From an uncultured Planctomycetia bacterium (GTDB lineage: Bacteria > Omnitrophota > Gorgyraeia > Duberdicusellales > 4484-171), in assembly GCA_964483625.1 (NCBI GenBank), contig CAZABB010000007.1, positions 1 through 63,864 on the forward strand: a DNA stretch of 63,864 bases, read 5' to 3'. Under the pieces are notes generated by a model that saw only the letters and a list, made by a program, of their open reading frames with translations, searched no databases and was not told where the DNA came from. Positions 7,660-63,864 of this stretch are shown in pieces (the stretch's first letter is position 1; the number at the start of each line of letters is the position of its first letter). The translations under genes and the position numbers were made by a program.

Positions 7660-7789
7660 TCAATTATGGGGCTGGTCGGATACATGGAATCACGCCCGTC
7701 TACTCATTCATTCTGCTTACGATTACCGCTGTTACCAGAGCCTTCCAAGAATTCCCCTCATTATCCATGTACCCTTCTCAAAATCAGCG

Positions 7790-8533
7790 TCAATCAATGG
7801 TTTGGTGGCTATCGTCATCGTCGTCATCGGGATAATCATAATCATTATCGCCGGGATAATCATAATCATTATCGTCGGGATACTCCGGATAACCATGTCC
7901 ACTATTGATTTTACCATCATCGGAAATATTCGTTTGAGACGTATCATACACGTTCTGTTCGTTTGTACATACGAGCGCAAAACTGTCTTCCAACATAAAC
8001 CCTTTGCGATGGCGTCTCGCAAAGCCGGAACCCGAAAATGTGTGTTGATCGCAATCGCCAACAATAATCATGTCAGGGGGAATATCATCCCATCTTCGGG
8101 GTAACATGGTGTTGATCCCATAGGAAACGCCTCCCGGCGGCGGAGTATGGTCGGAAGGGCAATGGAAAATGTCCGCGCTTACGCCGAACCGTCTGAGATT
8201 TTCCGGGGTCAGAAACTGAGCGTACACTTCACTGGCGGTATCAAATTTTATAAGCGCGTAAGAAGCACGTGTCAGCCAACCACCCTCGTTTATTACCTGA
8301 GCATAGGCACGTTCCAGATGCTCTTGTTTTAATTGTCCCAGCGTCGCCGGGAGAAAATCGTTTTCCAGCGCCCACATTTCGACCGCCGAACTCAGCGCCC
8401 GTAAATTCGTGGTGCATACTCTTTTCCGGGCGTTCTCCAGAACATGCCGGTACCCTCCCAGAGCCAGGGTAGCCAGAACCAGTATAATTACGGCAATAAC
8501 CATCATTTCTAGTAACGTAAAATTTCTTTTCAT
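7790..8533 (-). CDS. Prepilin-type N-terminal cleavage/methylation domain protein with acidic repeat tail
   Basis: The N-terminus MKRNFTLLEMMVIAVIILVLATLAL is the type IV pilin/pseudopilin class III signal. An FHCPSD motif occurs mid-protein. The C-terminus is YPEYPDDNDYDYPGDNDYDYPDDDDDD. An AAGGGGGGAG RBS lies just upstream of the ATG at 8533. Confidence 0.7.
   Translation of the reverse strand: MKRNFTLLEMMVIAVIILVLATLALGGYRHVLENARKRVCTTNLRALSSAVEMWALENDFLPATLGQLKQEHLERAYAQVINEGGWLTRASYALIKFDTASEVYAQFLTPENLRRFGVSADIFHCPSDHTPPPGGVSYGINTMLPRRWDDIPPDMIIVGDCDQHTFSGSGFARRHRKGFMLEDSFALVCTNEQNVYDTSQTNISDDGKINSGHGYPEYPDDNDYDYPGDNDYDYPDDDDDDSHQTID
7829..7894. repeat. 24-bp in-frame tandem repeat x2 plus partial third unit (gggataatcataatcattatcgYc)
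   Basis: 7829-7852 and 7853-7876 differ at one base. They encode the YP(D/G)DNDYD repeats of the prepilin-like protein. Confidence 0.9.
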
Positions 8534-8634
8534 CCACTCCCCCCTTTATTTTCCATCTCTCCACTATACGGATCCTATTATTTTTTTTACCATATTTGCA
8601 TATATTAAGCAAGTGATATATCACAATACATTCC

Positions 8635-8793
8635 TCAGAACAGCGTGTAAATAAAAGGGGCCACCGCAGAACTTTCCGTGAGGACAATCAATACCCCCAA
8701 CAATAAAAGAACGATAACGATCGGAAGAAGCCACCAGCATTTTTGTACCCTCAGGAACTCCCAGAATTCTTTTAAAACAGACAGTTTACTCAT
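8635..8793 (-). CDS. DUF5989-like small membrane protein (carbamoyltransferase-associated)
   Basis: MSKLSVLKEFWEFLRVQKCWWLLPIVIVLLLLGVLIVLTESSAVAPFIYTLF, 52 aa with one TM. This matches my memory of the DUF5989 family that accompanies NodU/CmcH carbamoyltransferases. The ATG at 8793 is preceded by AGGAGGG; the ORF-track start at 8817 is less likely. Confidence 0.6.
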   Translation of the reverse strand: MSKLSVLKEFWEFLRVQKCWWLLPIVIVLLLLGVLIVLTESSAVAPFIYTLF

Positions 8794-8946: not shown

Positions 8947-9396
8947 TTAAAATTGCTTTTCATACGACTGGCGAGATGGGTTTCTCAGAGAAGGCAGCCA
9001 ATAAGTTGTATCCCCTGTCCTGAACCGAAGATCAAGGAATTTCCACCTTCTCCATCGCATTCCCCAGGCGATCGGGGTTACTACCAGATAGTATGCAACC
9101 AGCAATATAAACGTCGATACGCCCAGATTCAACAATCGTAAAACTGCTTTTGATATACTATACAAAGGACAGAGCGCATACGGGATAAAAGAACTGCCCA
9201 AAAACAACAACGCCGCGACTGAAAAAAAGTATTGTTCACCGCCTTTTCCTTTTAAAACAAATATATTCCCCCAGATAAGCAGGACGATTCCCAAAGAGAT
9301 GCCGAACCGAAATAACTCCGTCCGGTCACACTCCCCTGCCCACTCCTTCATGAAACGTTTAATCAAGTTCAAGCGCACCCCCTGCTTCATGGTCAA
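8947..9396 (-). CDS. SxtJ-like small integral membrane protein
   Basis: Three hydrophobic helices (ELFRFGISLGIVLLIWGNIF..., FFSVAALLFLGSSFIPYAL..., STFILLVAYYLVVTPIAW). It lies between the carbamoyltransferase and the DUF5989-like gene, as in the known triad. An alternative ATG at 9351 (MKEWAGE) would remove the 38-nt overlap. Confidence 0.45.
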   Translation of the reverse strand: MTMKQGVRLNLIKRFMKEWAGECDRTELFRFGISLGIVLLIWGNIFVLKGKGGEQYFFSVAALLFLGSSFIPYALCPLYSISKAVLRLLNLGVSTFILLVAYYLVVTPIAWGMRWRRWKFLDLRFRTGDTTYWLPSLRNPSRQSYEKQF

Positions 9397-11173
9397 TACA
9401 TCCTTCGGGCTGATTATCTTTTGAAAGAAGAAAATCCCCCATAATCAAATAATCCATATGTGTACGCATAAAGCACCGATACGCATCCTGCGGGGTGCAG
9501 ACGATCGGCTCCCCCCTCACATTAAACGACGTATTGATAATCACAGGACAACCGTACTTTTCGTCAAATTTTTTAAGCACCTTATAGTAACGGGGGTTGA
9601 TATCTTCGCTCACACTCTGAATACGCGCCGAATAATCGACATGCGTTACCGCAGGGATCTCCGAACGTTTGACTTTCAGTTGCTCAAAACCGGCCAATGC
9701 CGTTTGAGAAGAGCTGTCGGCACGTTTTTCCTTTACCACCGGAGCGGCCAAAAGCATATAGGGACTTTCCGCACTGATTTCAAAATAATCGGATACCTTC
9801 TCCTTGAGAACCGACGGCGCAAACGGCCGGAAACTCTCTCTAAACTTAATTTTTAGATTGATTCGCTGCTGCATATCTTGCGCACGAGCATCACCCAGAA
9901 TAGACCGGCTCCCCAAAGCCCGAGGCCCGAATTCCATCCTGCCTTGAAACCATCCGATAACATTCCCGGAAGCGATAAGGTCGGCAATTTTCTCCGGTAT
10001 CTCCGCCTCATCCAATTTATCATAAGGAATATTCTGCCGCTTGAGAAAATGATGGATTTCATCATCGGAATACTCAGGCCCCAGATATGAACCAGACTGA
10101 GCATCACTGATTCCGTCAACAATCCGTTTGTTTTCCAGATATTGATACCAGACAAAGAGCGCCGCGCCTAACGCGCCGCCGGCATCACCGGCGGCCGGCT
10201 GTATCCAGATACGTTCAAACGGCCCTTCCCGTAAAATCCGGCCGTTGGCCACACAGTTAAGCGCAACCCCTCCCGCCAGACAGAGATTTTTTTGATGCGT
10301 TACCTCATACACATGCTGTGCCATACGCATCATAATCTCTTCACACACTTTCTGTATCGATGCGGCAACATCCATGTGCCGCCGGGTTATTTTCGATTCC
10401 GGTCGACGCGGCGGGCCGCCGAAAAGACGGTGGAATTTCCGGCTTATCATCGTCAATCCCACGCAATAGTTGAAATACGCCATATTCATCCGAAAAGAAC
10501 CGTCTTTTTTAAGGTCAATCAATTCCGACAAAATCAAATCTTTATAGCGAGGTTCCCCGTAAGGAGCCAATCCCATCATTTTATATTCGCCGGAATTCAC
10601 CTTGAATCCCAAATAATAGGTGAACGCGGAATAGAGAAGTCCGAGCGAATGAGGAAAATGGATCTCTTTATGCAATTCTACGAGATTATCCTTCCCTTCA
10701 CCGAAACTGCTCGTCGTCCACTCCCCCACGCCGTCAACGGTAAGGATTGCCGCCTCATCAAACGGTGAGGGGAAAAACGCGCTGGCAGCATGAGACTGAT
10801 GATGCTCGGGGAAAATGATCGGACCGCCGTACCGTAACTCCTCCTGAATAAGACTTTTTACCCACAGCTTTTTTTTAATCCAGAGAGGCATCGCTTTCCG
10901 GAAGGACATAATCCCTCTGGGAGCATAAGCAAGATACGCCGAGAGAAGCCGTTCGAATTTCAGAAACGGTTTATCATAAAACGCCACATAATCGATATCT
11001 TTACCCCCGAGGCAGGCTTCTTTCAAACAATACCTGATGGCATGGGAGGGAAAGGCTGAGTCGTGTTTTTTACGGGTGAATCGTTCTTCCTGGGCGGCGG
11101 CGATGACTTTGCCGTCGGCAACCAGAGAGGCGGCACTATCATGATAAAATGCGGAAATCCCTAAAATATTCAT
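9359..11173 (-). CDS. Carbamoyltransferase, NodU/CmcH family
   Basis: 604 aa. The N-terminus MNILGISAFYHDSAASLVADGKVIAAAQEERFTRKKHD is the ASKHA-type NodU/CmcH signature. The C-terminal YrdC/Kae1-like part has VINTSFNVRGEPIVCTPQDA. Confidence 0.88.
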   Translation of the reverse strand: MNILGISAFYHDSAASLVADGKVIAAAQEERFTRKKHDSAFPSHAIRYCLKEACLGGKDIDYVAFYDKPFLKFERLLSAYLAYAPRGIMSFRKAMPLWIKKKLWVKSLIQEELRYGGPIIFPEHHQSHAASAFFPSPFDEAAILTVDGVGEWTTSSFGEGKDNLVELHKEIHFPHSLGLLYSAFTYYLGFKVNSGEYKMMGLAPYGEPRYKDLILSELIDLKKDGSFRMNMAYFNYCVGLTMISRKFHRLFGGPPRRPESKITRRHMDVAASIQKVCEEIMMRMAQHVYEVTHQKNLCLAGGVALNCVANGRILREGPFERIWIQPAAGDAGGALGAALFVWYQYLENKRIVDGISDAQSGSYLGPEYSDDEIHHFLKRQNIPYDKLDEAEIPEKIADLIASGNVIGWFQGRMEFGPRALGSRSILGDARAQDMQQRINLKIKFRESFRPFAPSVLKEKVSDYFEISAESPYMLLAAPVVKEKRADSSSQTALAGFEQLKVKRSEIPAVTHVDYSARIQSVSEDINPRYYKVLKKFDEKYGCPVIINTSFNVRGEPIVCTPQDAYRCFMRTHMDYLIMGDFLLSKDNQPEGCIDHEAGGALELD

Positions 11174-47475: not shown

Positions 47476-48369
47476 TCAACTGGTTATTAGAAATCCCTTT
47501 ATCTCATACGCATGGGAAAATTGCCGTTTTTCAAAAAAGCGGATTGCCGGACGATTATGTTGAGAGACTCCCACTCCGATACGGTCAATATTGTACTTGC
47601 CGGCGAACCCTTTAGCTTCATTGAGCAAAACATCCGCCACTCCTCTTCCTCGATATTGCTGATCTATCCCTATTTGATAAATATACCCAAATGTATCACT
47701 AGGATCCCCCCAAGGATTTTTTTCAATTGCGAGGAAACCGACCATTTCGCCATTCGCTTCGGCGATAAAGTAACCTTCTGGGTTAAAGGATGGCCGCAAG
47801 ATAACATTATTCATAAATTGCCTGTCGATACGAGTCCCCAGATAACCGAGCACCTTATTGTAAAACCGCACATACCTCATTTCGTCATAATTTAAAACAA
47901 AATTACGGATGGAAACACTCTTTGTATCTCCTACTGATTTACAATGTATATTATCTACATAAGCCAATAGTTTTTGCTGGCTATAATTCACATCCTTCGT
48001 CTGTAACTTTTCGAGTAATCTCAATGCCGTTTCGTTGTAATCCTCTACCAGGATAAGAAGGTCGCTACCGAAAGACCGGAAATGATCCTGTAAATCATTT
48101 ATATCCTCTGAGGTTAAATCCTCTAAAATAAAAATATTGTAAATAACGACAACTTCCCATTTCGCCCACGCTCTTTTTTTTGTGTACGTAAAGAAAACTT
48201 TTGACATCCGGAACGACGGAAAGAAACAGTTCATCTCTGATGTCTCTTTTAAATGAGCGATTGCGTAGTGAGACGGAAAATGCCGCTTACTCAGATGTCG
48301 TTGATGAAACATAACAATCGTTTCAAAATATTTTTCTCTTCTATCGTGTGCGCCTGACTTCATATTCAT
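47476..48369 (-). CDS. GNAT-family N-acetyltransferase with ~150-aa N-terminal extension
   Basis: C-terminal FGYIYQIGIDQQYRGRGVADVLLNEAKGFAGKYNIDRIGVGV (acetyl-CoA binding Q/RxxGxG/A). Confidence 0.75.
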   Translation of the reverse strand: MNMKSGAHDRREKYFETIVMFHQRHLSKRHFPSHYAIAHLKETSEMNCFFPSFRMSKVFFTYTKKRAWAKWEVVVIYNIFILEDLTSEDINDLQDHFRSFGSDLLILVEDYNETALRLLEKLQTKDVNYSQQKLLAYVDNIHCKSVGDTKSVSIRNFVLNYDEMRYVRFYNKVLGYLGTRIDRQFMNNVILRPSFNPEGYFIAEANGEMVGFLAIEKNPWGDPSDTFGYIYQIGIDQQYRGRGVADVLLNEAKGFAGKYNIDRIGVGVSQHNRPAIRFFEKRQFSHAYEIKGFLITS

Positions 48370-52548: not shown

Positions 52549-53133
52549 TTATCTTTTGCCAGCCTCTCTCTCAGACTCATATTCATCAATTAAGGAAAAT
52601 TCACCTCTCAATAACGACATGTACACAAGATGATGGTACCCCCCCTGAGACCAGATTCTTTCCTTTAATGTCCCCTCTTTCTTCCAGCCCAATTTCTCTA
52701 CGCAACGAATAAAAGCAGGATTGATCGAACCCGCATATACCTTATTAAGATTCATGTTCATAAACGCGTGTTTTGTTATGTGGTATATTGCTTCCGCGGC
52801 ATACTCTTTTCCCCAATATTCTTTCCTGCCGATAAGAACACTAATCTCGGCACACCGATTTACCTCTTCAATATTCACTAAAGCGACATTGCCTATATGC
52901 ATCTCATCTTTTCTGACTATGACAGCTAGAATAACACCTTCCTGTGGATGATCACAATAATATTTAATGTACTGTGTCATCTGAGAGCAATTTGTGGGTT
53001 TTCTCCGGCGCTGGGAGTAACGGTTTACTTCAGGATCGTTTAACCAGGATAAATACTCATAAGTAAACTCTTTATCGGACAACGGACGCAGGTAAATACG
53101 TTTTCCGGATAAAAACACAATTTTCTTTTTCAT
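52549..53133 (-). CDS. GNAT-family N-acetyltransferase (RimJ/RimL-like; PseH-type candidate)
   Basis: 194 aa with IYLRPLSDKEFTYEYLSWLNDPEVNRY and IGRKEYWGKEYAAEAIYHITKHAF. Confidence 0.75.
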   Translation of the reverse strand: MKKKIVFLSGKRIYLRPLSDKEFTYEYLSWLNDPEVNRYSQRRRKPTNCSQMTQYIKYYCDHPQEGVILAVIVRKDEMHIGNVALVNIEEVNRCAEISVLIGRKEYWGKEYAAEAIYHITKHAFMNMNLNKVYAGSINPAFIRCVEKLGWKKEGTLKERIWSQGGYHHLVYMSLLRGEFSLIDEYESEREAGKR

Positions 53134-53967: not shown

Positions 53968-55990
53968 TTTCCTTCCCTGAAGGAATAATTGTTTTTACAA
54001 TTGAATTATATTCGCATCCCCGAGAGAGGAGACTTAACGGAATCCTTGCTAATATTCTTCCCCTCCCACTCGCATCATTTCCATATAATCTGACATAATC
54101 AGCAATGATCTGTTTCAACTCATCTGTCATTTTAAAAACTATTGTGGTCGTACCGAGGAATTGTTTTATACCCTTACGGAATCCGTTTTTCTCCCAGGAC
54201 AGAATATCAAAAGAGAATTCCTCACAGACCTCATCTTCTTTAGAGGTATCAAATATATTCCCGCGTCGCGAAACACAATATCGGCCCAAATCATCTAAAA
54301 TACGCCTGTCGGCTTGATGAGGGCACCTTCGCACCGTCACCCTGAGGGCTAAATCTACGAATGAGGGTAAATTATCTAGACAAATCGCATGATATTTCAA
54401 TAAGAGGTTATCCCCCTGTTCTCCCGCAAGAAGCTTCTGAAAATGCACATCGTCATCGTAGCAACTCAGCAGTTGACCCTCATCCTCCCATGCTTCCGTT
54501 TTTGCCTCCCGGCAAAAACATTGATAAATCTCTCCTGCTCTCCCTTTATCAATTCGTATCGTCTCGTAAATATCCGTCAACCAATCAAAAAGTGGGATGC
54601 CGATCTCTTTTAGATAACGTACTAATTCTTTTATCGCCTGAAAATTGTAAAACGAAGACAACACAAAATGGAATCCCCTTAAATAGAGATAATCTTCCCA
54701 AGATATCGTATCGGTTGAAACACATACCGTTTCCGATTCTACTATCTTACTCCCCTGATATACGCCAAAATTGCGAGGGATTACCCGGTATCTTTTTAAC
54801 ATCTGAAACCGATCATAATAGGCGTCCTCTTTTAATGGCGTATTCTCTAAAAGCATCAAGGTATAGGGATTTACAAAATCCATCCCGGCCTCTATAGCTT
54901 TTTTTATACCGGCAAGATGAGTTTCTTTCGACTCTCGGGGCATGGGGATGATAAGTTCACAATTGGAAAACATGGTCTCCTCTTCGCGTAGTTCGTCCAT
55001 GATGCTTTTATAACGCTCAAAAGGCAAATTTTCCCTTTTTATTTCTTTCAAAGTAGCCTCGTTAAAACTCTGCACAGAGGCAGAGAAATAAATCGATTTG
55101 CCAAGTTTTCCGATACAACGAGCAACCCTCTCTTTATTGCTTTTTGCCGTTGCCGCGTTTACCATAAGCGGCCAGCCGTTTGTTTCTTTTGTTTCGCGTA
55201 ATTTCTGTGCGATCCGACAATCGCGCTCAAAGATACCGAAGTTACTGTCGGTAACATGTAATGACCGGGATTTTACCCGAGGGGCGATATAATCTACTTC
55301 CGCCAAAACTCGGGAAAGATCAAACTCATATATCTTATTATAATATTGATCACTACAAACACAGTACGCACAGGAAAAAGGACAGCCGCGGTTAGTCTGC
55401 AAGATCGGGACAAATCCATCAAAAAGAAACTCATCTAATAAACCAGTTAAATAAGGAGAGGGGATACTGTCAAGAGAATCGACCCGTTTAGGTTCCCCGG
55501 GACCGACAAATCTCTCTTCACTCATAAAACAACATCCTTCAAGAGGCCCCTGTTTGATCTTATCTACATCCAATCCCGCCGCAAGTAATCTTTGTACAAG
55601 CTCTAAAAAGGCGATCTCACCTTCCCGATAGACATAAAAATCTACCTGTCCATGGTGACGAAGAAACTCTTCTTGCCTGTTTTTGCTTTTAGGAAAATGT
55701 GGCCCGCCCATAACAGTAACCAGATCCGGTTTCTGTTTTTTGGCCAGAGAGAGATAGAAATAATTGAGCCGAGAATTCCATATATAATTACTTGCCCCCA
55801 GGATATCCGGCATCTTCTTCTTTAAAGCCTGCTCGAATTTATCCGGGTGATTAAAAATACGTATAACGCATTCCTCAGGAAGGTATTGCTTTAGATATGC
55901 GGCAAGATATCCCAGATTAAGCGGGATAGCTTCCTGAGAAGGCCTGCCGTCGCGAATATGGGTTAGATTAAGTAAGTATATGGCCGCCAT
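53957..55990 (-). CDS. B12-binding-domain radical SAM enzyme (class B; candidate C-methyltransferase)
   Basis: 677 aa. The N-terminal B12-binding-like Rossmann has LNLGYLAAYLK...PDILGASNYIW...VTVMGGPHF. The radical SAM core is ILQTNRGCPFSCAYCV, followed by a long C-terminal domain. Confidence 0.75.
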   Translation of the reverse strand: MAAIYLLNLTHIRDGRPSQEAIPLNLGYLAAYLKQYLPEECVIRIFNHPDKFEQALKKKMPDILGASNYIWNSRLNYFYLSLAKKQKPDLVTVMGGPHFPKSKNRQEEFLRHHGQVDFYVYREGEIAFLELVQRLLAAGLDVDKIKQGPLEGCCFMSEERFVGPGEPKRVDSLDSIPSPYLTGLLDEFLFDGFVPILQTNRGCPFSCAYCVCSDQYYNKIYEFDLSRVLAEVDYIAPRVKSRSLHVTDSNFGIFERDCRIAQKLRETKETNGWPLMVNAATAKSNKERVARCIGKLGKSIYFSASVQSFNEATLKEIKRENLPFERYKSIMDELREEETMFSNCELIIPMPRESKETHLAGIKKAIEAGMDFVNPYTLMLLENTPLKEDAYYDRFQMLKRYRVIPRNFGVYQGSKIVESETVCVSTDTISWEDYLYLRGFHFVLSSFYNFQAIKELVRYLKEIGIPLFDWLTDIYETIRIDKGRAGEIYQCFCREAKTEAWEDEGQLLSCYDDDVHFQKLLAGEQGDNLLLKYHAICLDNLPSFVDLALRVTVRRCPHQADRRILDDLGRYCVSRRGNIFDTSKEDEVCEEFSFDILSWEKNGFRKGIKQFLGTTTIVFKMTDELKQIIADYVRLYGNDASGRGRILARIPLSLLSRGCEYNSIVKTIIPSGKENAG

Positions 55991-56897
55991 ATTTATTTTC
56001 CTTAAGAGCCATCACATCAATATAAGGCACCCGGGGATATAATACGCTTTCTTTACGGGCAACATGCAATTCAATACCGGCCGGTTTTAAGACAAAATCA
56101 TTGAACGCATGAACGGTTACATCAAATGGATGTTTATTTTTCGTAGGGTACATCCCTCCGTACAGTTGTTTTCTTCTTTTTTCTTTAGGAGCGTGTTTGA
56201 TTTCGTTTACGGCCCACTGAGCCTCTTCGTAATCTTCATAAAACGCCACACCATGATTCATCTCGCAACCCAACAGGATGATTCTCTTATATCTCATTTC
56301 GAATGCTACATAAAGCATCTCGTTGAGAGTGCCACGGTACATATAACGCCCTTTAAAGTCGTCGGCACGAAAACAACGCGTTGCCGGACAATTTACGAAT
56401 TTCGGGTATTTGTAACGACAGACAGTCGAATCTGGCGAAAACCACTCCGGAATAAGGCAGGGTCGCATCCCTCTCTTCCAGGCCCGATCAGAAACCATTT
56501 GGACCGTATTCCGATAGTCCCACCTTCTCTTTTTAAACAATTCGGTCTGTCTCCTTCCTACGGAAGGATCACGGTTATATTCAAAATGGAAATAGGTCGG
56601 GACAAACTGATGGTACAAAAAATAGTTAAACGCCAGGCTGTCAAAACTACGTACAACGTCCCATTCTGCTTCTGTGACTTTTTTAATCAAACTGCCGCAG
56701 CCAAGAATAAAAAGCGTATCACTTTTCTTTTTGATTCTTTCTTCTTCAATATTTATCACCTTGACCATTTTGCGGCAATTCTTACAATAAAGGAAAGGCC
56801 ATTTATACAGATTGACATACGTAATCGGGATAAATACTCGATATATCCAGACAAACAATTTTTTTATTTTAATACCGACGGCTTTTATTAATTTCAT
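55968..56897 (-). CDS. Hypothetical; GT42 (CstII-like)/DUF115-like candidate nonulosonate transferase
   Basis: 309 aa. TLFILGCGSLIKKV...FDSLAFNYFLY parallels the GNGPSL...FRCNQFYF start of CstII/Maf-type proteins. The later LNEMLYVAFEMRYKRIILLGCEM parallels ITSGVYMCAVAIALGYKEIYLSGIDF. It sits directly upstream of the neuA-like gene. Confidence 0.4.
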   Translation of the reverse strand: MKLIKAVGIKIKKLFVWIYRVFIPITYVNLYKWPFLYCKNCRKMVKVINIEEERIKKKSDTLFILGCGSLIKKVTEAEWDVVRSFDSLAFNYFLYHQFVPTYFHFEYNRDPSVGRRQTELFKKRRWDYRNTVQMVSDRAWKRGMRPCLIPEWFSPDSTVCRYKYPKFVNCPATRCFRADDFKGRYMYRGTLNEMLYVAFEMRYKRIILLGCEMNHGVAFYEDYEEAQWAVNEIKHAPKEKRRKQLYGGMYPTKNKHPFDVTVHAFNDFVLKPAGIELHVARKESVLYPRVPYIDVMALKENKYGGHILT

Positions 56898-57535
56898 TCT
56901 CCACCTGTACTCTTTAATATTTCTTCCGCAAGCCAGAAATCAAATTCTTCATCGATTTCAATATTGTATTTCCTATCAAGCAAAACCTGCTCTATCCTCT
57001 TTCCATACCGGTCGCCTTTTCGTATTACATCAGCTTTTATAACATATACGTTGCCGTCATCGTAAAAAAAACCTTGCATGTCCTGCCGCCGCTTGTTATT
57101 ACTGGCATACGGAGCATATTTACACATAAAACCCGTAGCCAACGAATCGGCTCCTGTCTCGATAAACTTTTTTATACATTCATCTATGAGGCCGGCATAG
57201 CGCATAGGAGATGTCGCCTGCAGTAATACGACGATATCGGCGCTGATATGTTCAAGCACATGCTGTAATACAGCCAATGTCGATGTTTCATCCTGTGCCA
57301 GCTCATAAGGCCGTGCAAGGACCTTAGCTGAATACTTTTCAGCCACTGCGGCAATCTCTGAATCTTCGGTCGAAATAATATATTCATCCAGCAATTTTGA
57401 ATTCCGGGCGGATTCAATAGTCCAGGCAATCAACGGTTTTCCCGCTAATTCCTTAATATTCTTACGCGGAATACCTTTACTGCCTCCCCTCACCGGGGTT
57501 ACTCCTAAAATTTTCCCCTCTATACCATATCCCAT
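56894..57535 (-). CDS. Acylneuraminate (nonulosonate) cytidylyltransferase, NeuA/PseF/LegF type
   Basis: ILGVTPVRGGSKGIPRKNIKELAGKPLIAWTIESA is the canonical CMP-NulO synthetase N-terminus. 213 aa. Confidence 0.82.
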   Translation of the reverse strand: MGYGIEGKILGVTPVRGGSKGIPRKNIKELAGKPLIAWTIESARNSKLLDEYIISTEDSEIAAVAEKYSAKVLARPYELAQDETSTLAVLQHVLEHISADIVVLLQATSPMRYAGLIDECIKKFIETGADSLATGFMCKYAPYASNNKRRQDMQGFFYDDGNVYVIKADVIRKGDRYGKRIEQVLLDRKYNIEIDEEFDFWLAEEILKSTGGE

Positions 57536-58584
57536 GTTAAGACCTCATCTTCTTTAATATCACGTTTTGCTTTCTTACCGACAATCTCCTCTAAACACCG
57601 CGGCGCAATACCCGTTGCCGGACGTTTCACTATAATCATTTCTTTGGTAATCATCGTTTCTTTGCCGATATCTTTTTTAGCAACAAGGCTCCTTCTTGCC
57701 CACCGCCGCGCTTTTTCCTCACAGGCTAAAGGAACTTTCGCACTCGATCCCAATACCCGACCGACAGTATCAAATCCCTTCATCAGACGATTGAGATCGT
57801 CATAATCGGCGGAAATCGCATGATCATACCCCGGCCGCGTTTTATCGAACGTGAAATGTTTTTCAATAACTTTCGCCCCCAGCGCGACAGCCGCAATAAG
57901 TACACTGTTTGAAACAGAATCAAGCGTATGATCGGAATATCCCACCGGGTACTGCGGGAATGTTTCCATCAGGTGCTTCATCATATTCAGATTCACATCT
58001 TGCACCTGAGTGGGGTAATTTGTCACACAATGAAGAATCGCAATCTGTCCGTTTCCTTGTGATTCAAGGATACCGACCGCCTCCTTAATCTCTTCCATTG
58101 ACGCAGCACCGGTAGAAATAATCACCGGCTTGTTTTTCGCCGCCACATGCCGCAAAAGAGGCAGATGGGTAATATCCATGGAACTTATTTTATAAAGAGG
58201 CACATCAAGTTTCTCAAGCATATCGGCTGAATCCTCATCGGAAGGAGTGGAAAAAAAGATAATCCCCTCATCATCGGCAATTTTCTTCAAATACCGGTAT
58301 TCATCGAATTTTAAAAGCGGGGTCTGGCTAAACTCCTCATACTGCGTCTGACCGGGACATCCCTCGATATCCCAGAATTTAGGTGCCGTGCGAGTAACGA
58401 TTTTTTCAGGAACAAATGTCTGGAATTTGACCGCGTCCGCCCCCTCCTTTGCCGCGATACGAATCATCTCCTCAGCTCGCGACACGTCTCCCTCAAAATT
58501 GCACCCGATCTCTAAAATAAAAAACGGCTTCCCCTTTCCTCCAATTACTTTCCTGCCGATTTCTATCTGTTTAAACGTATTCAT
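57520..58584 (-). CDS. Nonulosonate synthase, NeuB/PseI/LegI family (second copy)
   Basis: PFFILEIGCNFEGD, KFQTF, IISTGA, CVTNYPT, YSDHTLD, and a C-terminal SAF domain (MIIVKRPATG). Confidence 0.85.
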   Translation of the reverse strand: MNTFKQIEIGRKVIGGKGKPFFILEIGCNFEGDVSRAEEMIRIAAKEGADAVKFQTFVPEKIVTRTAPKFWDIEGCPGQTQYEEFSQTPLLKFDEYRYLKKIADDEGIIFFSTPSDEDSADMLEKLDVPLYKISSMDITHLPLLRHVAAKNKPVIISTGAASMEEIKEAVGILESQGNGQIAILHCVTNYPTQVQDVNLNMMKHLMETFPQYPVGYSDHTLDSVSNSVLIAAVALGAKVIEKHFTFDKTRPGYDHAISADYDDLNRLMKGFDTVGRVLGSSAKVPLACEEKARRWARRSLVAKKDIGKETMITKEMIIVKRPATGIAPRCLEEIVGKKAKRDIKEDEVLTWDMV

Positions 58585-58589
58585 CTCTT

Positions 58590-59315
58590 TTATACTTTCT
58601 TCAAAGCAATACCCTCTTGAGAAGGTAAATTTTGCCCTTCGGTAATAATCCTCAAACTCTCCTGTCCGTGATTAAACAGCACATCAAGCACCGACATCGC
58701 CGGAACAAAGTCACCATGAAGCTGGGAATGCTGAGGATATCGGTAATCGTGAAAGGTAACGTTAATTTTTTTTCCTTTCCACGTTTTCAAATCAAGATAA
58801 TCCCTGCCGGCCGGGCCGGAAAGATACTCATCCGCTTTAACATCTGTACAGATATTTACTAACAATTCTTCTTTTTTCCCTGCTGCCTTTAACTCCGACG
58901 CCTTTTTTACGGGCGTATCAACTTTGATGCTCTCAAGAAGGTAACATAACGATGCTTCAATAAGATCCACCAGGTACGTCCATTCTGTCTGATACATCTT
59001 TTCAAAAAACCCGGCATAATCGGAAAAATAAGGCGCTTTTTTGTACGCATGATAAATACTCTGCCAGTGATCGTTTCTCCAATTGATGGCGTTATTAATA
59101 TGTACATCTTTGATCAACTGACCAAAATTACCTTTCATAAGCACAGGAACGGTAAGCCAAATCCAACCTCCCGCCGTCTTGATTTTATTACGGTTAATAA
59201 GATAATTTTTTGAATACGCCACGTTATCCAGTAAGACAAACTGATCACACCGGGAAATCCGGTCGAACAACCCGGCCCACGGTAAATACATCGGCTGATG
59301 AATCCCTATCCGCAT
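58590..59315 (-). CDS. WbqC-family protein
   Basis: MRIGIHQPMYLPWAGLFDRISRCDQFVLLDNVAY... matches my memory of the WbqC-like family N-terminus (HQP.ylPw.G.f.ki). The family has no established function. Confidence 0.6.
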   Translation of the reverse strand: MRIGIHQPMYLPWAGLFDRISRCDQFVLLDNVAYSKNYLINRNKIKTAGGWIWLTVPVLMKGNFGQLIKDVHINNAINWRNDHWQSIYHAYKKAPYFSDYAGFFEKMYQTEWTYLVDLIEASLCYLLESIKVDTPVKKASELKAAGKKEELLVNICTDVKADEYLSGPAGRDYLDLKTWKGKKINVTFHDYRYPQHSQLHGDFVPAMSVLDVLFNHGQESLRIITEGQNLPSQEGIALKKV

Positions 59316-60415
59316 AACACCTCTTTCAAACTGTTTACGACATATTCGGCATCTTCATCGGTAATGAACGGATGAATCGGCAAAGTGATTTGCTGTTTTA
59401 ACACCTTTTCGGCAACCGGGAAATCGCCTTCACGATGCCCGAATAAATCCCGGTATACCGGTTGTAAATGGCAAACCGGCCAATATACGCTTTCAAGCTC
59501 AATGTTATGTGTATTTCTAAACTCATTTTTAAACCGGCCGGCATCGATTGTACTATCCAGCTGGACAGGAAATTTATAATAACTGGGAACGGAACCGGTA
59601 GAAACCGGTAACACTCTAATTTCCTTGACGGCTTTTAACAATTCGCAATATTTATGTGCGATATGTTTACGCGTATCGAGCATAGATTCAAGATCCCGCA
59701 ATTGATACAATCCCACTGCAGCCCGAATCTCATCCATAAACCAGTCATTCCCTATATGAATAATTTCAGACATCGCCCGGCCCCGGCCATGGCATCTCAC
59801 GCTCTGGGCAAATTCATAAAGGTCATCGGAATCGGTCGTAATCATCCCGCCGGTACCCGTCGTCATTATTTTGGTAGGATAGAAAGAAAAACATCCCGCA
59901 TATCCCCATTTTCCGGCTTTGGTATCTTTAAAACTGGCGCCAACCGCGTGAGCGCAATCTTCAATAAGAACAATTCCCTTTTGCGTACAGAGCTTTTTCA
60001 AATACTCGATATCATCTGAGATTATCCCGGCGATATGAGTAATAATGACTGCCTTTGTTTTAGGGGTTATCTTTTTTTCGACTTCGGTAACATCAAGATT
60101 ATACGTACCTCCCTTGATATCAGACAATACCGGACGGCCGCCGGCAAACAGGACCGCGTTTCCGGTCGCGATAAACGTATTGGTAGAGATGATGACTTCT
60201 CTGTCTTTTACATCTAAAAACCGCAATACGATCTCTAAAGCCGTCGTACAGGAATTTACCGATAGAGCGTATTTTGTACCGGTATAAGCGGAAAATTCTT
60301 TCTCAAAATTTTCGGTCATCTCCCCGCCCATAAGCCTGCCTGAATCTAATATCTCGGCAAGTTTTCCCAGAATTTCGCTTTTATTTCGGAAAAACGGCCG
60401 TGCTACTTGAATCAT
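59306..60415 (-). CDS. DegT/DnrJ/EryC1-family aminotransferase (PseC/LegC-like)
   Basis: 369 aa with FEKEFSAYTGTKYALSVNSCTTAL, REVIISTNTF, and FSFYPTKIMTTGTGG (PLP Lys). Confidence 0.85.
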   Translation of the reverse strand: MIQVARPFFRNKSEILGKLAEILDSGRLMGGEMTENFEKEFSAYTGTKYALSVNSCTTALEIVLRFLDVKDREVIISTNTFIATGNAVLFAGGRPVLSDIKGGTYNLDVTEVEKKITPKTKAVIITHIAGIISDDIEYLKKLCTQKGIVLIEDCAHAVGASFKDTKAGKWGYAGCFSFYPTKIMTTGTGGMITTDSDDLYEFAQSVRCHGRGRAMSEIIHIGNDWFMDEIRAAVGLYQLRDLESMLDTRKHIAHKYCELLKAVKEIRVLPVSTGSVPSYYKFPVQLDSTIDAGRFKNEFRNTHNIELESVYWPVCHLQPVYRDLFGHREGDFPVAEKVLKQQITLPIHPFITDEDAEYVVNSLKEVLCG

Positions 60416-61337
60416 ACATTTTCTCCTGAACTTCTTTTATGTATTTTGTCAATGCCTCATCGAAAGGATACAGGCGCAAATCCCCTATTTTTTCTTTAAG
60501 TTTATCCACCGCAAGCCATCGATCGACAGGCTTACTGTTTCCTGAAGTATCTACGATTTCAACTTCCCGGCCATATACCCGTTGAAAAACATCCCGCACA
60601 TTACAGGCTAAAGAACGAATACTTTGCGGCCGGCCGCTTCCTATATTCAAAATATTATTTTCTCTATTCTGCCGCCGCAGAAGCTCTAACATAATCCGGC
60701 ATACATCATCGATAAAAATAAAATCGAGCTTCTGTTCTCCTCCACCCTGCAATATGAGAGGTTTACCTTCAAACGCAGATTTTATAAAATGGAAAATGAC
60801 TTCCTCCGGGTTTATCCCGCTTCCGAAACCAAAAATGTTGGCGAAACGTAAAATCGTATAATTCATATCGCAGGAGATGATCTCCTGCTCCGAAAGTGCC
60901 TTCGACCAGCCATATATCTCCTGCGGCGCAAGCACCATATCTTCATGAAACGACAACCGGCCTTCTGTCTGACCGTACGCCCAATAGGTCGAGGCAAACA
61001 GAATTTCTTTAACCGAATGGCGCTTGGCATATTCAAGCAAAAGATGGGTCCCCCATACATTTGTCGCGATGACATCTCTTACTTTATCGGCACACTGCCC
61101 GGCTCCTTTGATCGCGGCAAGATGGATAATCGTATCTACTCCTTCCAAGGATTCCTCAAGCACCTTGCTATCAGTCATGTCCCCTTCGATAAACGTTACC
61201 CCAGGCCAATCCTGCCGGAGAAAATTTTCGGGACAAGAAGGATAGACCAGCGCGTTTATCTGAAAATCATTTTGAAGATACTTAAGTAGAGTACTGCCCA
61301 GATATCCGTTGGCGCCGGTAAGAAAAATTCTCTTCAT
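60381..61337 (-). CDS. NAD-dependent epimerase/dehydratase (extended SDR)
   Basis: MKRIFLTGANGYLGSTL (GxxGxxG) and catalytic YGWSKALSE (YxxxK). 318 aa. Confidence 0.82.
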   Translation of the reverse strand: MKRIFLTGANGYLGSTLLKYLQNDFQINALVYPSCPENFLRQDWPGVTFIEGDMTDSKVLEESLEGVDTIIHLAAIKGAGQCADKVRDVIATNVWGTHLLLEYAKRHSVKEILFASTYWAYGQTEGRLSFHEDMVLAPQEIYGWSKALSEQEIISCDMNYTILRFANIFGFGSGINPEEVIFHFIKSAFEGKPLILQGGGEQKLDFIFIDDVCRIMLELLRRQNRENNILNIGSGRPQSIRSLACNVRDVFQRVYGREVEIVDTSGNSKPVDRWLAVDKLKEKIGDLRLYPFDEALTKYIKEVQEKMYDSSSTAVFPK

Positions 61338-62464
61338 GAAACTGATACCTTTTGTGCTTTCTTTTTTACCAATATATCCATAATACGCCCGGCAACTCTT
61401 TCTGTTCCCAGCCCGTCAACGAGCTTCTTCCCATGAATACTCAACTCAGACCGTGTGCTGTCTGAAAGAAGAACTTCACCTGTTTTTCCCGCGATATATT
61501 CACAGGAGACATCCGTTCCTATCCCCAGATTCACTGCCGCCTGGTTCTGGACGAACTGCCGGGCAACAAGATCATGATCTTTATGGTGACACAGGATAAG
61601 CGAAGGAACTCCGAAACAGGCAAGTTCATAGAGGGTATTGCCCGCGGCGGTAATAGCAAGATCACTCTTTGCCATCAATTGATACATCTTATTTTTTGAA
61701 ACATTCCATTGAAACTGATAGTCACCTTTTAAAGACGGTATTATCTCTTGCAACTCTTTTTTGTGCGCTTGCAAGAAACCTCCTCCTACCACGACAATAA
61801 CTTTTTGGTCAAGGTTTAACGTTTCCAGAGCCTGAATCGTTTTCATTGTCAATTTATACGGATCGGTACCCCCTTGTGTTACCAGTATCTGAGCACATTG
61901 AGGAGGAATTTTTTTTACCTGTTTCCACACCCCATGTAACTGAGCGTCAAGAAGTGCGTATTTCGGGCCGATCACGTATCTCTCTTTTTGCGAAAACTTA
62001 TCATAAAACTTCTTATCCTGGCCAATGTGAAAATTAACGGCAAGATCAGCCGGGATTTCCGAATGTATCGTATCGTCAAATAAAACAACATAGGCAAATT
62101 TTCGATTTTGCCATTGCCTCATATATGAATCATCGATGACAATCGCTCCGTTATCGACACGATTTAGCCGCAACAGATCAACGATGAAAACATCTGGATT
62201 AAAATCGGCGATAGCGGTCTCGGTAAAAAGAATTTCATCATGCATACTATTTGTTCCCGAGACAAACTGAACGTTATATCCGGCACCACGAATACATTTG
62301 ACCCCGGGATGATAATCCCTTGTTAAAAACAGAATCTCCACATCAACCTTTTCTTGAAGACTATCCAGCAAAGAAAGACACTCACCGACATGCCCCATGC
62401 CGATACGGTTGCCTGAATCAACGCGTACTAAAATCTTGCATTTCTTCTCTTTGTTCATTGCCAT
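61334..62464 (-). CDS. PseG-like UDP-sugar hydrolase / GT28-C-terminal-domain protein
   Basis: KILVRVDSGNRIGMGHVGECLSLLDSL resembles the PseG N-terminus (R.D....G.GH..RC..LA). The C-terminal half has AITAAGNTLYELACFGVPSL. Confidence 0.55.
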   Translation of the reverse strand: MAMNKEKKCKILVRVDSGNRIGMGHVGECLSLLDSLQEKVDVEILFLTRDYHPGVKCIRGAGYNVQFVSGTNSMHDEILFTETAIADFNPDVFIVDLLRLNRVDNGAIVIDDSYMRQWQNRKFAYVVLFDDTIHSEIPADLAVNFHIGQDKKFYDKFSQKERYVIGPKYALLDAQLHGVWKQVKKIPPQCAQILVTQGGTDPYKLTMKTIQALETLNLDQKVIVVVGGGFLQAHKKELQEIIPSLKGDYQFQWNVSKNKMYQLMAKSDLAITAAGNTLYELACFGVPSLILCHHKDHDLVARQFVQNQAAVNLGIGTDVSCEYIAGKTGEVLLSDSTRSELSIHGKKLVDGLGTERVAGRIMDILVKKKAQKVSVS

Positions 62465-63120
62465 TTCTCTCTCATCGTCATAAATGCTTCCGCCACTTTA
62501 AGCCCGATTTCTGTGCCCCGTTTTTCTGAAAGCGCGATGATCGCTTTTTCCGAACGGGGATGGGGAAATGTCTTAAACTCATCCTCATAACACCGCATTG
62601 CTTCGATTTTCTGTTTCAGGTACGGTTCGATATCGACATAAAAATTCGGCAAAAACGCAAGTTCCCTAAACGGTGGTATTTGATCGGTGGACGAAAGCAC
62701 CTCATAACTCATCACTTTCTTAAGCGCAGGATTGGCAAAGGTGCGACAGGCGATGATGCCTGCGTTAAACGCCGCTTTATGATCCTGGTTGGTATCACCG
62801 GCATGGTTTAAATAGACGACTTCAGGTACGACTTTTTTAAATACCTCTTCTAACGGCACCAGTATATCTATAGTACGGGCATCTAGTTGTTCATCTTTGA
62901 GGTTAAGAAATATTGCCTCTTGATATCCTAAAATATCTTTTGCACCGAGCGCGCCGTTTTTTTGACGTTGAATACGTTTTTCATCATAGGTATGGTTATA
63001 AGCGCGGTTAGCCAGCATACATACCGTTACCGCATCGTTTTGACGGACGTGCTTAACGATAGTACCGCCCATACCCAATACTTCATCATCCATGTGTGCC
63101 GAAATAACCAATACCCTCAT
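62455..63120 (-). CDS. PIG-L/LmbE-family N-deacetylase
   Basis: MRVLVISAHMDDEVLGMGGTI (AHxDDE zinc motif) and later NQDHKA. 221 aa. Confidence 0.78.
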   Translation of the reverse strand: MRVLVISAHMDDEVLGMGGTIVKHVRQNDAVTVCMLANRAYNHTYDEKRIQRQKNGALGAKDILGYQEAIFLNLKDEQLDARTIDILVPLEEVFKKVVPEVVYLNHAGDTNQDHKAAFNAGIIACRTFANPALKKVMSYEVLSSTDQIPPFRELAFLPNFYVDIEPYLKQKIEAMRCYEDEFKTFPHPRSEKAIIALSEKRGTEIGLKVAEAFMTMREKWQ

Positions 63121-63864
63121 GCCTTCACTCCCGGCCGGGCATCCATATGTTCGACATCCAGCTTTTGATCGGCATAAACGTTCATATGAATTTTTTTATC
63201 TTTCACCTGTACGACTTCCTCCCTGGTAATTCCGCCGTCACAACATATCTGACAGGGTTTAAGATAAAGCCTTTGTTTGTTCTTCATCAGACGGCGCAAG
63301 CGCACAAAAGCCTCACCCCTCCATATCTGCCGCAAAGAATTCTCATTTACGTCACCCAGGATGTTCCCTTCGAGATAATCGCTGTGACACTGGGAAACTC
63401 TACCATCCCACATAACACACATTCTCTGCCAGGGTGATTGGCAGATATAAGAAGGATCGTGTTTGAAATCTCTTTGCTGATCGGATCGTATTTGATCGGC
63501 GATAAACGAAATTTTATCGGCGATGGGTTTAAAAAAATCAAGATACTCACCGGGATTATCTTTTATTGCCGACCATATCGATTGGACACGAATGAGTGGC
63601 TTCGATAATCCCTGTCGGTTACGAGAATCACGAATATATTTTATGTTTTCTATCACCTTTTCAAACCTTGCCGGATAACGGATACGTTCGTAAATCTCTC
63701 CTAACCCGTCAAACGAAATACTGATCCAGTCAAGGCCGGCATTGATCAATTGATCAATCAACTCAAAATTCAACCGTTCACCGTTCGTCAAAAAAGCCAC
63801 ATCCTTAATCCCCTTTTCTTTGGCATAACGCACCATATCCACAATGCGCGGATTAAGAAGCGGC
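63117..63864 (-). CDS. Radical SAM/SPASM-type enzyme, C-terminal part (5' end beyond the right edge)
   Basis: The frame stays open upstream of the listed GTG: ...PLLNPRIVDMVRYAKEKG, which is the GEPLL region of a radical SAM core. The C-terminal Cys-rich domain is CQSPWQRMCVMWDGRVSQCHSDYLEGNILGDVNENSLRQIW...CQICC. The CX3CX2C motif must lie outside the window. Confidence 0.7.
   Translation of the reverse strand, partial: PLLNPRIVDMVRYAKEKGIKDVAFLTNGERLNFELIDQLINAGLDWISISFDGLGEIYERIRYPARFEKVIENIKYIRDSRNRQGLSKPLIRVQSIWSAIKDNPGEYLDFFKPIADKISFIADQIRSDQQRDFKHDPSYICQSPWQRMCVMWDGRVSQCHSDYLEGNILGDVNENSLRQIWRGEAFVRLRRLMKNKQRLYLKPCQICCDGGITREEVVQVKDKKIHMNVYADQKLDVEHMDARPGVKA

Follow-up and report, generated by a model that had tools for sequence, protein, structure and literature searches.

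Nonulosonic acids cap bacterial surfaces, where they shape surface charge, phage binding and immune recognition; to our knowledge, the mechanism by which their N-substituents are varied is mostly unknown. The reference routes are that to pseudaminic acid (Pse), catalysed by PseB, C, H, G, I and F in Campylobacter and Helicobacter, and those to legionaminic acid (Leg), represented by LegB/C/H/G/I/F of C. jejuni and the Sps proteins of B. subtilis. A further relative comes from Ca. Kuenenia stuttgartiensis, for which mass spectrometry has given evidence of cytidine monophosphate (CMP)-nonulosonates with one free and one formylated amine (bioRxiv 10.64898/2026.04.20.719630). According to the abstract and the section on CMP-nonulosonates of that preprint (SugarBase), these compounds are assigned to a Leg-like cluster that has a deacetylase and a formyltransferase between legC and neuB; WbqC is not mentioned in either of these two parts. 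Here, we describe a related set of genes in a 63,864-nucleotide stretch of DNA (the window; contig CAZABB010000007.1 of assembly GCA_964483625.1) from an uncultured bacterium of the phylum Omnitrophota. The set is a minus-strand block of seven genes at 56894-63120 which, in the order of transcription, encode a PIG-L deacetylase, a PseG-like protein, an extended short-chain dehydrogenase/reductase (SDR), a DegT aminotransferase, a WbqC protein, a NeuB-family synthase, and a CMP-transferase. This content, order, and extent had been given in a preliminary description of the DNA, and all were confirmed. Our proposal, which we hold with a probability of roughly 0.7, is that these genes form the heart of a Kuenenia-type, Leg/Pse-like pathway; its product would be a diamino nonulosonic acid, activated with CMP, in which editing of the amino groups precedes use.

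A coupled block and its Kuenenia-type counterpart

From 63864 down to at least 23363, the sizeable open reading frames (ORFs) of the window are all on the minus strand. The first visible gene of the operon (63117..63863) is cut by the contig end and encodes the C-terminal 248 amino acids of a SPASM radical S-adenosylmethionine (SAM) enzyme, with Pfam Radical_SAM and SPASM matches. It is followed, on the same strand, by genes for a PIG-L/LmbE-family zinc de-N-acetylase (62455..63120; PF02585, 68.4 bits, 1.1e-18), a PseG-like GT-B protein that is probably a nucleotide-sugar hydrolase (61334..62464; TIGR03590, 142.5 bits, with weak LpxB and GT28_C Pfam matches), an extended SDR with a catalytic Thr and YxxxK (60381..61337; PF01370, 145 bits, 2.3e-42), and a DegT-family, pyridoxal-phosphate-dependent sugar aminotransferase (59306..60415; PF01041, 343.8 bits, 1.7e-102). 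The remaining three genes encode a WbqC-family protein of 241 amino acids (58590..59315; PF08889, 252 bits, 7.2e-75), a NeuB-family nonulosonate synthase with a SAF domain (57520..58584; PF03102, 274.1 bits, 1.2e-81; SAF, 53.9 bits), and a CMP-nonulosonate synthetase of the CTP_transf_3 type (56894..57535; PF02348, 90 bits, 2.1e-25). Adjacent genes overlap at six junctions, that of the radical SAM and PIG-L genes at the head included, by 4, 10, 4, 35, 10, and 16 nucleotides, the later of the 10-nucleotide overlaps being that between DegT and WbqC, and WbqC and NeuB are separated by a gap of 5 nucleotides. Thus, the genes form one translationally coupled operon. The PIG-L translation holds the metal/base motifs AHMDDE and NQDH (AHxDD(E) and H-x-x-H/D-H being those expected), and the WbqC protein has the residues of all 19 invariant columns of a 29-member alignment of its family, in which the loops HQPxYLPW and YLSGxxGR are conserved. 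The seven genes include neither an acyltransferase nor a PseB/CapD-type dehydratase; the preliminary description had likewise placed no acetyltransferase inside the block, and the GNAT genes that it listed at 52549 and 47476 are real.

The same gene families are found together in a Brocadiales genome (G067, of the order to which the Scalindua locus L075 belongs) that is presumably Ca. Kuenenia. Its WbqC region (L090; G067:C1:2132000-2151999) begins with a transposase-split SDR gene, a nucleotidyltransferase, DegT, PIG-L, WbqC, and a formyltransferase, and continues with NeuB, a CMP-transferase, a PseG-like protein, a SPASM radical SAM enzyme, an ORF, and a sulfotransferase. DegT, PIG-L, WbqC, NeuB, the CMP-transferase, the PseG-like protein, and the SPASM radical SAM enzyme, seven out of seven, are co-located both there and in the window, and the gene order of the region matches that of the cluster to which the CMP-nonulosonate section of the SugarBase preprint ties the Kuenenia compounds. 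A sulfotransferase gene nearby is a further shared feature. Moreover, both synthases fall below the PseI and the NeuB cut-offs. The two loci differ in that the order is permuted and the protein identities are 24-39%. In addition, the Kuenenia-like cluster has a clear formyltransferase, an SDR of the T-S-E type, and an RmlA-like nucleotidyltransferase, whereas the SDRs of our locus lack the dehydratase dyad and the formyltransferase signal beside the window is a weak Formyl_trans_N match of 25 bits (cut-off 26.1) on an adjoining contig, C16 (C16:2488-3231). In the Brocadiales region, the SDR gene is interrupted by a DDE transposase gene on the opposite strand, its N-terminal part lying at 6640-7032, the transposase at 7028-8764, and the C-terminal part at 8969-9565.

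In the pathway that we infer, in which the substrates, the sequence of the steps, what WbqC does, and the product's stereochemistry are all part of the proposal, a nucleotide-linked N-acetylhexosamine (HexNAc) would first be oxidised, DegT would then add an amino group, and PIG-L would remove the N-acetyl group inherited from the HexNAc. Subsequently, the nucleotide would be removed by the PseG-like protein, the NeuB-family synthase would condense the sugar with phosphoenolpyruvate (PEP), and the CTP_transf_3 enzyme would make the CMP-sugar. WbqC would be the fixed partner of PIG-L and, by analogy with bacillithiol synthesis (see below), would most likely act on a free sugar amine. Both nearby SDRs are dyad-less, and the SPASM radical SAM enzyme is a candidate for the oxidation step.

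The synthase, the dehydratase, and the distance from Pse and Leg

None of the enzymes of the block reaches its NCBIfam equivalog cut-off. The PseG-like protein, matching TIGR03590 over the full length of the model, stays just under the required 153.55 bits. DegT scores 236 bits with the PseC model (cut-off 423.5) and 196 with that of LegC (420), and the CMP-transferase scores 127.6 with PseF (TIGR03584; 205.7). For the synthase, the values are 351 bits with NeuB/LegI (TIGR03569; 399.65) and 280 with PseI (TIGR03586; 340.25), and for the SDR, 103 with RmlB (365), 78 with LegB (475), and 43 with PseB (TIGR03589; 407.75). The earlier view of the block as a Pse/Leg-like nonulosonate module without a canonical PseB is supported.

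With the canonical Pse pathway, the window shares an aminotransferase, a PseG-type GT-B protein, a NeuB-family synthase, and a CMP-transferase, and three of its genes find their highest or nearly highest NCBIfam match in PseC, PseG, and PseF. It differs in having no PseB, the Asp-Lys dyad being absent from its SDR, and no PseH, and in a synthase that lies outside the PseI clade. With the Leg pathways, the likeness is that the window synthase scores higher with the NeuB/LegI model than with that of PseI; however, the block has neither LegH nor a NeuC-type LegG, and its LegB and LegC scores are those given above. For a PseG-like protein in a Leg route, SpsG of B. subtilis is a precedent. Canonical Pse and canonical Leg are both rejected, every equivalog cut-off being missed and the dehydratase motif being absent. 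An ordinary operon for di-N-acetyl Pse or Leg, in which PIG-L and WbqC would be unrelated passengers, is hardly credible. The gene logic is alike, from aminotransferase to CMP-transferase, but PseB, LegB, and PseH are all missing, the synthase and the cut-offs speak otherwise, and PIG-L and WbqC keep together in different phyla and are here part of the coupled operon.

The position of the synthase can be described more closely. PseI scores in 151 Omnitrophota genomes are bimodal: 29 of the 31 matches over the cut-off lie at 437-497 bits, and the matches under it, the window synthase among them, at 340 or less. The other two over the cut-off, at 365 and 349 bits, are a truncated match of 248 positions and a frame of 558 amino acids. 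With the NeuB/LegI model, the window synthase is in the sub-threshold group, and its scores against solved structures are 194 bits for N. meningitidis NeuB, 192.5 for B. subtilis SpsE, and 172 for C. jejuni PseI. A tree was built from 60 sequences. The phylum contributed 14 proteins each to the PseI-equivalog and the NeuB-equivalog group, and to these were added 28 NeuB proteins encoded in WbqC loci, the synthase of the Kuenenia-like cluster, and three paralogs from the genome itself; the clades of the tree are labelled by NCBIfam cut-offs and not by characterised PseI, LegI, NeuB, or KdnS sequences. The PseI clade has a support of 100, with the window synthase outside it. A separate clade (support 99) unites twenty WbqC-linked synthases, which come from many phyla. 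The window synthase pairs, with a support of 100, with its counterpart in the most similar WbqC locus that we found (L001), and the pair stands near NeuB/LegI-type proteins and the Kuenenia-like synthase in a region that is unresolved (60% support). By score and placement, the window protein is not a PseI and sits on the NeuB/LegI side, where its position is not firm. Of the NeuB-family genes of the genome, only the third (G000:C38:3234-6853) exceeds the NeuB/LegI cut-off, with 428 bits; an RmlB/Gmd-like SDR gene lies 1.7 kb downstream of it, which points to a third nonulosonate module.

The position of the T-D-E residues of RmlB is occupied by T-Y-W in the window SDR, leaving no dehydratase acid/base pair. 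Aligned pairwise with solved enzymes, it shows STYWAYG against the STDEVYG of the dehydratase 2hun, and four epimerases carry SSS, STG, or SAA at the site of the catalytic Thr. The protein is unlikely to be a 4,6-dehydratase, and its sequence favours an epimerase, an oxidoreductase, or a reductase. The preliminary description had called it a generic SDR rather than a CapD/FlaA1-type PseB, which is correct, and had taken it for a dehydratase, which is unlikely. Among the SDRs of the WbqC loci, those of Pse-like loci read STD (PseB/CapD type), and those of a third type of locus and of the Kuenenia-like cluster read S(T/S)SEVYG (Gmd/UXS type). Only three SDRs in this survey are without an acid/base residue, namely, that of the window, that encoded upstream on C16 (STVWVYS), and the ortholog in L001 (STIWVYS). 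In the whole assembly, which is 94% complete, no PseB/CapD-type enzyme is found, the best PF02719 match being one of 77 bits on RmlB-like SDRs; RmlB/Gmd-like SDRs are present on other contigs of the genome.

These observations bear on the proposal that no 4-keto-6-deoxy intermediate is made by an SDR at all, the SPASM radical SAM enzyme oxidising or deoxygenating the sugar and the dyad-less SDRs acting as epimerases or reductases. In that case, the pattern of deoxygenation or the configuration would set the product apart from Leg and Pse. Among radical SAM enzymes, sugar dehydrogenases and dehydratases such as BtrN and AprD4 are known, and the SPASM enzyme is kept beside PIG-L, WbqC, and NeuB in four loci, orthologs of it belonging to the cassette also in L001, L004, and the Kuenenia-like region. 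The want of an Asp/Glu or Asp/Lys pair in the SDRs of the window, C16, and L001, and of a PseB/CapD-type enzyme in the genome, is in its favour as well. On the other hand, the RmlB/Gmd-like SDRs elsewhere in the genome could serve in trans, and the Kuenenia-like cluster and L004 carry dehydratase-type SDRs in addition to the radical SAM enzyme. We consider a backbone made in this way unlikely; it would be compatible with the other readings discussed here; on present inference, the conserved SPASM enzyme is a candidate for the oxidation of the nucleotide-HexNAc.

PIG-L and WbqC as a conserved pair

WbqC proteins are abundant. An exhaustive profile search (E<=1e-10) gives 13,600 clusters at 50% identity, close homologs of the window protein in metagenomes amount to 622 matches, and a pattern scan of one genome per species finds at least 577 WbqC-encoding stretches. 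For gene calling and clustering, 80 loci from more than 25 phyla were taken. Where WbqC is flanked by 4 kb or more on both sides (49 loci), PIG-L is encoded within 4 kb of it in 30, DegT in 23, either of the two in 36, and NeuB in 20. The common denominator of these contexts is an enzyme that creates a free sugar amine. Near WbqC, no tRNA gene is found in 59 of 60 loci, and none is near the block in the window; the sole one, a tRNA-Pro (CGG) gene at 8025-8101 of L056, lies 6 kb downstream of WbqC and probably marks the boundary of the locus.

PIG-L and WbqC had been described as inserted or intercalated in the block. This has to be revised: the pair is a conserved amine-editing cassette found across many phyla, often by NeuB and also in cultured bacteria, and not a local insertion. 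The preliminary description had itself named two findings that would weigh against its account, and they have fallen out differently, since PIG-L and WbqC do prove to be standard members in related genomes, whereas the synthase does not cluster firmly with either PseI or LegI. A cultured example is a plasmid of Mariluticola halotolerans LMO-2 (NZ_CP090961) with the order pseB-pseC-pseF-PIG-L-pseG-synthase-x-WbqC, without pseH. On plasmids of Rhizobium and Azospirillum, the neighbours of WbqC include methyltransferases, an acetyltransferase, and a 4-aminotransferase. In Bacillus, 28 plasmid records match WbqC, and the neighbourhood was inspected in one, pBWB401 of Bacillus mycoides KBAB4 (NC_010180.1 317573-319831; L120), where the genes encode, in order, a sugar dehydrogenase, DegT, an SDR, a pyridoxal-phosphate enzyme, a FemA/FemB-family protein, WbqC, and PIG-L.

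The locus closest to the window, L001, has identities of 71% for the CMP-transferase, 59% for NeuB, 58% for WbqC, 52% for the radical SAM enzyme, and 42% for PIG-L. It has no DegT or PseG-like gene, and a xylose-isomerase-like TIM-barrel protein with a weak AP_endonuc_2 match is encoded between PIG-L and WbqC (3502-4461). Its metagenome-assembled genome is labelled Micrarchaeota despite the 71% identity of the CMP-transferase to that of an Omnitrophota bacterium; mis-binning or transfer is possible.

Three types of context recur. In the first, a Pse-like set (SDR, DegT, CMP-transferase, PseG, and NeuB) is followed by tailoring genes, which encode methyltransferases, an FAD oxidoreductase, a formyl- or hexapeptide-acyltransferase, and a second DegT, and then by WbqC-PIG-L at the end. 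In the second, which lacks NeuB, the order is glycosyltransferase family 4 (GT4), membrane protein, WbqC, PIG-L, DegT, and WecA-like transferase. The third has no PIG-L and runs radical SAM, AsnB-like, GNAT, radical SAM, WbqC, SDR, and DegT. The second type raises the question of whether PIG-L and WbqC edit not the nonulosonate precursor but another HexNAc-derived sugar of the same glycan, for instance an acceptor-linked N-acetylglucosamine (GlcNAc), on the model of bacillithiol and mycothiol synthesis. NeuB is missing from about half of the WbqC/PIG-L loci, and the second type copies the logic of BshA/BshB/BshC. In addition, the substrates of BshB and MshB are glycosides rather than nucleotide sugars (PMC5790435). 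Nevertheless, we regard this as improbable for the window, where the genes of the pair lie among those for the PseG-like protein, DegT, and NeuB and are translationally coupled to them. Moreover, the separate clade of twenty WbqC-linked synthases suggests long co-inheritance with nonulosonate synthesis, and the free amine is already present at the level of the CMP-sugar in the CMP-nonulosonate results of the preprint (10.64898/2026.04.20.719630).

What, then, does WbqC do? In the literature, we found no functional characterisation of the family, and no sequence in the Protein Data Bank (PDB) matches it. The name presumably derives from the E. coli O121 cluster. The O antigen of E. coli O121 carries an amide-linked N-acetylglycine (PMC7685785). 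An AlphaFold2 model of the window protein, built on 29 homologs, has a predicted local distance difference test score (pLDDT) of 92. Among 48,161 PDB chains, the one closest in fold is B. subtilis BshC (4wbd; VIA-align Z 14.2, 221 of 241 residues, root mean square deviation 3.4), and BshC is also the top Foldseek match (E 0.023, probability 0.85); the ESM Atlas gave no usable neighbour. Next come class I lysyl-tRNA synthetase (Z 11.5), the glutamyl-, tyrosyl-, arginyl-, and cysteinyl-tRNA synthetases (Z 7-9), MshC (6.8), and PanC (5.9). The model is, therefore, predicted to have a BshC-like Rossmann fold of the type of class I aminoacyl-tRNA synthetases. For PIG-L, the closest named relatives are BshB1 (TIGR04001, 69.8 bits, below the cut-off of 182.5) and the PDB entries 2ixd and 6p2t. 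Since the fold of WbqC is closest to BshC and PIG-L is closest to BshB, both point to the same two consecutive steps of bacillithiol synthesis.

The synthesis of bacillithiol (BshA/BshB/BshC) and that of mycothiol (MshA/B/C/D) both employ a PIG-L/LmbE deacetylase to expose a sugar amine, on which a Rossmann enzyme of the class I aminoacyl-tRNA synthetase type then acts. BshC adds cysteine to glucosaminyl-malate, the product of the PIG-L-type BshB, in a reaction that has never been reconstituted and whose activated donor is unknown (PMC5790435). The likeness extends to the GT4 genes that accompany PIG-L and WbqC in many loci, BshA being a GT4 enzyme too, and to rare fusion proteins. The latter, WbqC-GNAT and GNAT-WbqC (P0250 and P0263), represent two independent architectures, one for each order of the domains, and recall MshC followed by the acetyltransferase MshD. 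They emerged, together with the tandem WbqC-WbqC proteins P0124 and P0214, from an exhaustive search of representatives, a word-index search for longer, fused WbqC proteins having found none. There are also differences: WbqC, with 241 amino acids, lacks the BshC coiled coil and sequence-level homology to BshC (PF10079), and its context is the synthesis of surface-glycan sugars, not of a low-molecular-weight thiol.

It is tempting to propose that PIG-L and WbqC work like BshB/BshC or MshB/MshC, so that WbqC would N-acylate the unmasked or the DegT-made amine. The preliminary description had already raised such a route, in which deacetylation and re-acylation would leave a non-acetyl N-acyl group on the nonulosonate. 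This would refine the diamino nonulosonate pathway rather than replace it. The group added could be an amino acid or another carboxylate, from an aminoacyl-tRNA or an adenylate as the donor, and a GNAT enzyme may acetylate it next, giving an N-(acetyl)aminoacyl nonulosonate. Beyond the fold of WbqC, the resemblance of PIG-L to BshB, and the fusions, several observations are consistent with this. The block is without an acyltransferase of its own, and DegT and WbqC overlap; loci with WbqC, SDR, and DegT and no PIG-L fit any free sugar amine as the acceptor; and the FemA/FemB-family gene of pBWB401 lies directly upstream of WbqC-PIG-L, FemA/FemB enzymes being ones that use aminoacyl-tRNA as the donor. 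In actinomycetes, WbqC and LmbE are in an operon with a dedicated prolyl-tRNA synthetase isoform, an odd tRNA-Pro variant, GT4, and murG (PMC10404621). However, the WbqC alignment has no HIGH or KMSKS motifs and no invariant Lys or His, the near absence of neighbouring tRNA genes is adverse, and so are the missing sequence-level similarity to BshC and the fact that the BshC reaction itself lacks reconstitution. In Bacillus, the Fem-like enzyme rather than WbqC could be the aminoacyl transferase; no homolog of that Fem-like protein was found in the window, on C16, or in the 90 loci searched. Finally, the Kuenenia-like cluster holds WbqC, yet its CMP-sugar, as described in the CMP-nonulosonate section of the preprint, combines a free amine with a formyl group, an aminoacyl group being absent. 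Deacetylation to a free amine is thereby the only outcome with an experimental anchor for this gene set, which argues against WbqC simply re-acylating the amine. Acylation by WbqC in the window is, in our judgement, a possibility with the odds against it. For the family at large, we advance it in the same tentative spirit: BshC-like amide formation on sugar amines unmasked by PIG-L or made by DegT, possibly with an aminoacyl-tRNA as donor, which would yield a sugar with an N-aminoacyl or N-acetyl-aminoacyl group.

Several points weigh against the pathway to an edited diamino nonulosonic acid as we have drawn it. Because the equivalog cut-offs are missed throughout, the sequences do not fix the substrates and the stereochemistry. 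No canonical 4,6-dehydratase is encoded in the block or directly upstream, and the product may not be a Leg/Pse-type 9-deoxy sugar. PIG-L and WbqC also occur without NeuB, beside GT4, DegT, and WecA-like genes, and may act on another sugar. The Kuenenia identity of the Brocadiales genome is presumed from its order-level kinship and the order of its genes. As to the likeness to bacillithiol synthesis, a WbqC profile finds no match to 4wbd among PDB sequences at E<=10, and hhalign of this profile with four BshC sequences (L085-L088) gives a probability of 0.02%. Separately, 41 genomes of a single Bacillota-type phylum were searched for BshC and yielded no match.

Flanking genes and the meaning of the cassette

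The last 54 nucleotides of the window (63811-63864) recur unchanged at positions 55-108 of contig C16, from the same assembly, and lie inside the SPASM radical SAM gene. C16:3-512, on the minus strand, encodes the N-terminal 170 amino acids of the enzyme, and the L001 ortholog spans both halves, with residues 16-140 on C16 and 121-364 in the window. Hence, the operon very probably continues upstream on C16. There, the minus strand carries the dyad-less SDR gene, a third DegT-like gene, the weakly formyltransferase-like gene, an ORF without assignment, and four genes resembling Cj1415-Cj1418; the formyltransferase-like protein and orf202 have no homologs in other WbqC loci. The four genes (3833-8212 of L119, G000:C16:1-16000) encode an APS-kinase-like protein, an NTP_transf_3 cytidylyltransferase-like protein, a class I glutamine amidotransferase (GATase), and a PEP-utilising protein of 807 amino acids. 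The GATase scores 89.7 bits with the model of gamma-glutamyl-CDP-amidate hydrolase, and the PEP-utilising protein scores 888 bits with PRK05849. In Campylobacter, the Cj1415-Cj1418 set makes CDP-phosphoramidate 3'-phosphate, the phosphoramidate donor of the capsules (PMC11800397). By homology, the C16 set suggests a phosphoramidate-modified glycan in this Omnitrophota bacterium.

Directly after the CMP-transferase gene, an ORF of 309 amino acids (55968-56897, minus strand) has no Pfam or NCBIfam match; a relative with 26% identity is encoded between PseG and NeuB in an Acidobacteria locus (L073). Beyond it follow, in order, genes for a B12 radical SAM methylase, a methyltransferase, a GNAT (52549-53133), a second cytidylyltransferase, a Gfo/Idh/MocA oxidoreductase, a second DegT, and a second GNAT. 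This last protein is an extended GNAT (47476..48369, minus strand), encoded about 10 kb downstream of the block, in which the GNAT domain comprises residues 195-285. It is a candidate partner acetyltransferase only, its 29-31% identity to the GNAT domains of two WbqC-GNAT fusion proteins being a weak, generic GNAT similarity.

For the window itself, the gain is modest, as it adds one more instance of a widespread cassette. In the literature, one 2026 preprint covers the deacetylase step, in its CMP-nonulosonate section (10.64898/2026.04.20.719630), and WbqC is uncharacterised. What is new here is the fold match of WbqC to BshC, the position of BshB as the closest relative of PIG-L, the rare WbqC-GNAT fusions, the SDR without an acid/base pair, and the probable continuation on C16. 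The Mariluticola halotolerans plasmid and Bacillus mycoides pBWB401 provide cultured carriers of the pair. The cassette is widespread, and one of its two core enzymes is without a known function; the matches of WbqC to BshC and of PIG-L to BshB turn this into a testable hypothesis. If WbqC does form amides, solving it would reveal the long-missing chemistry of BshC.

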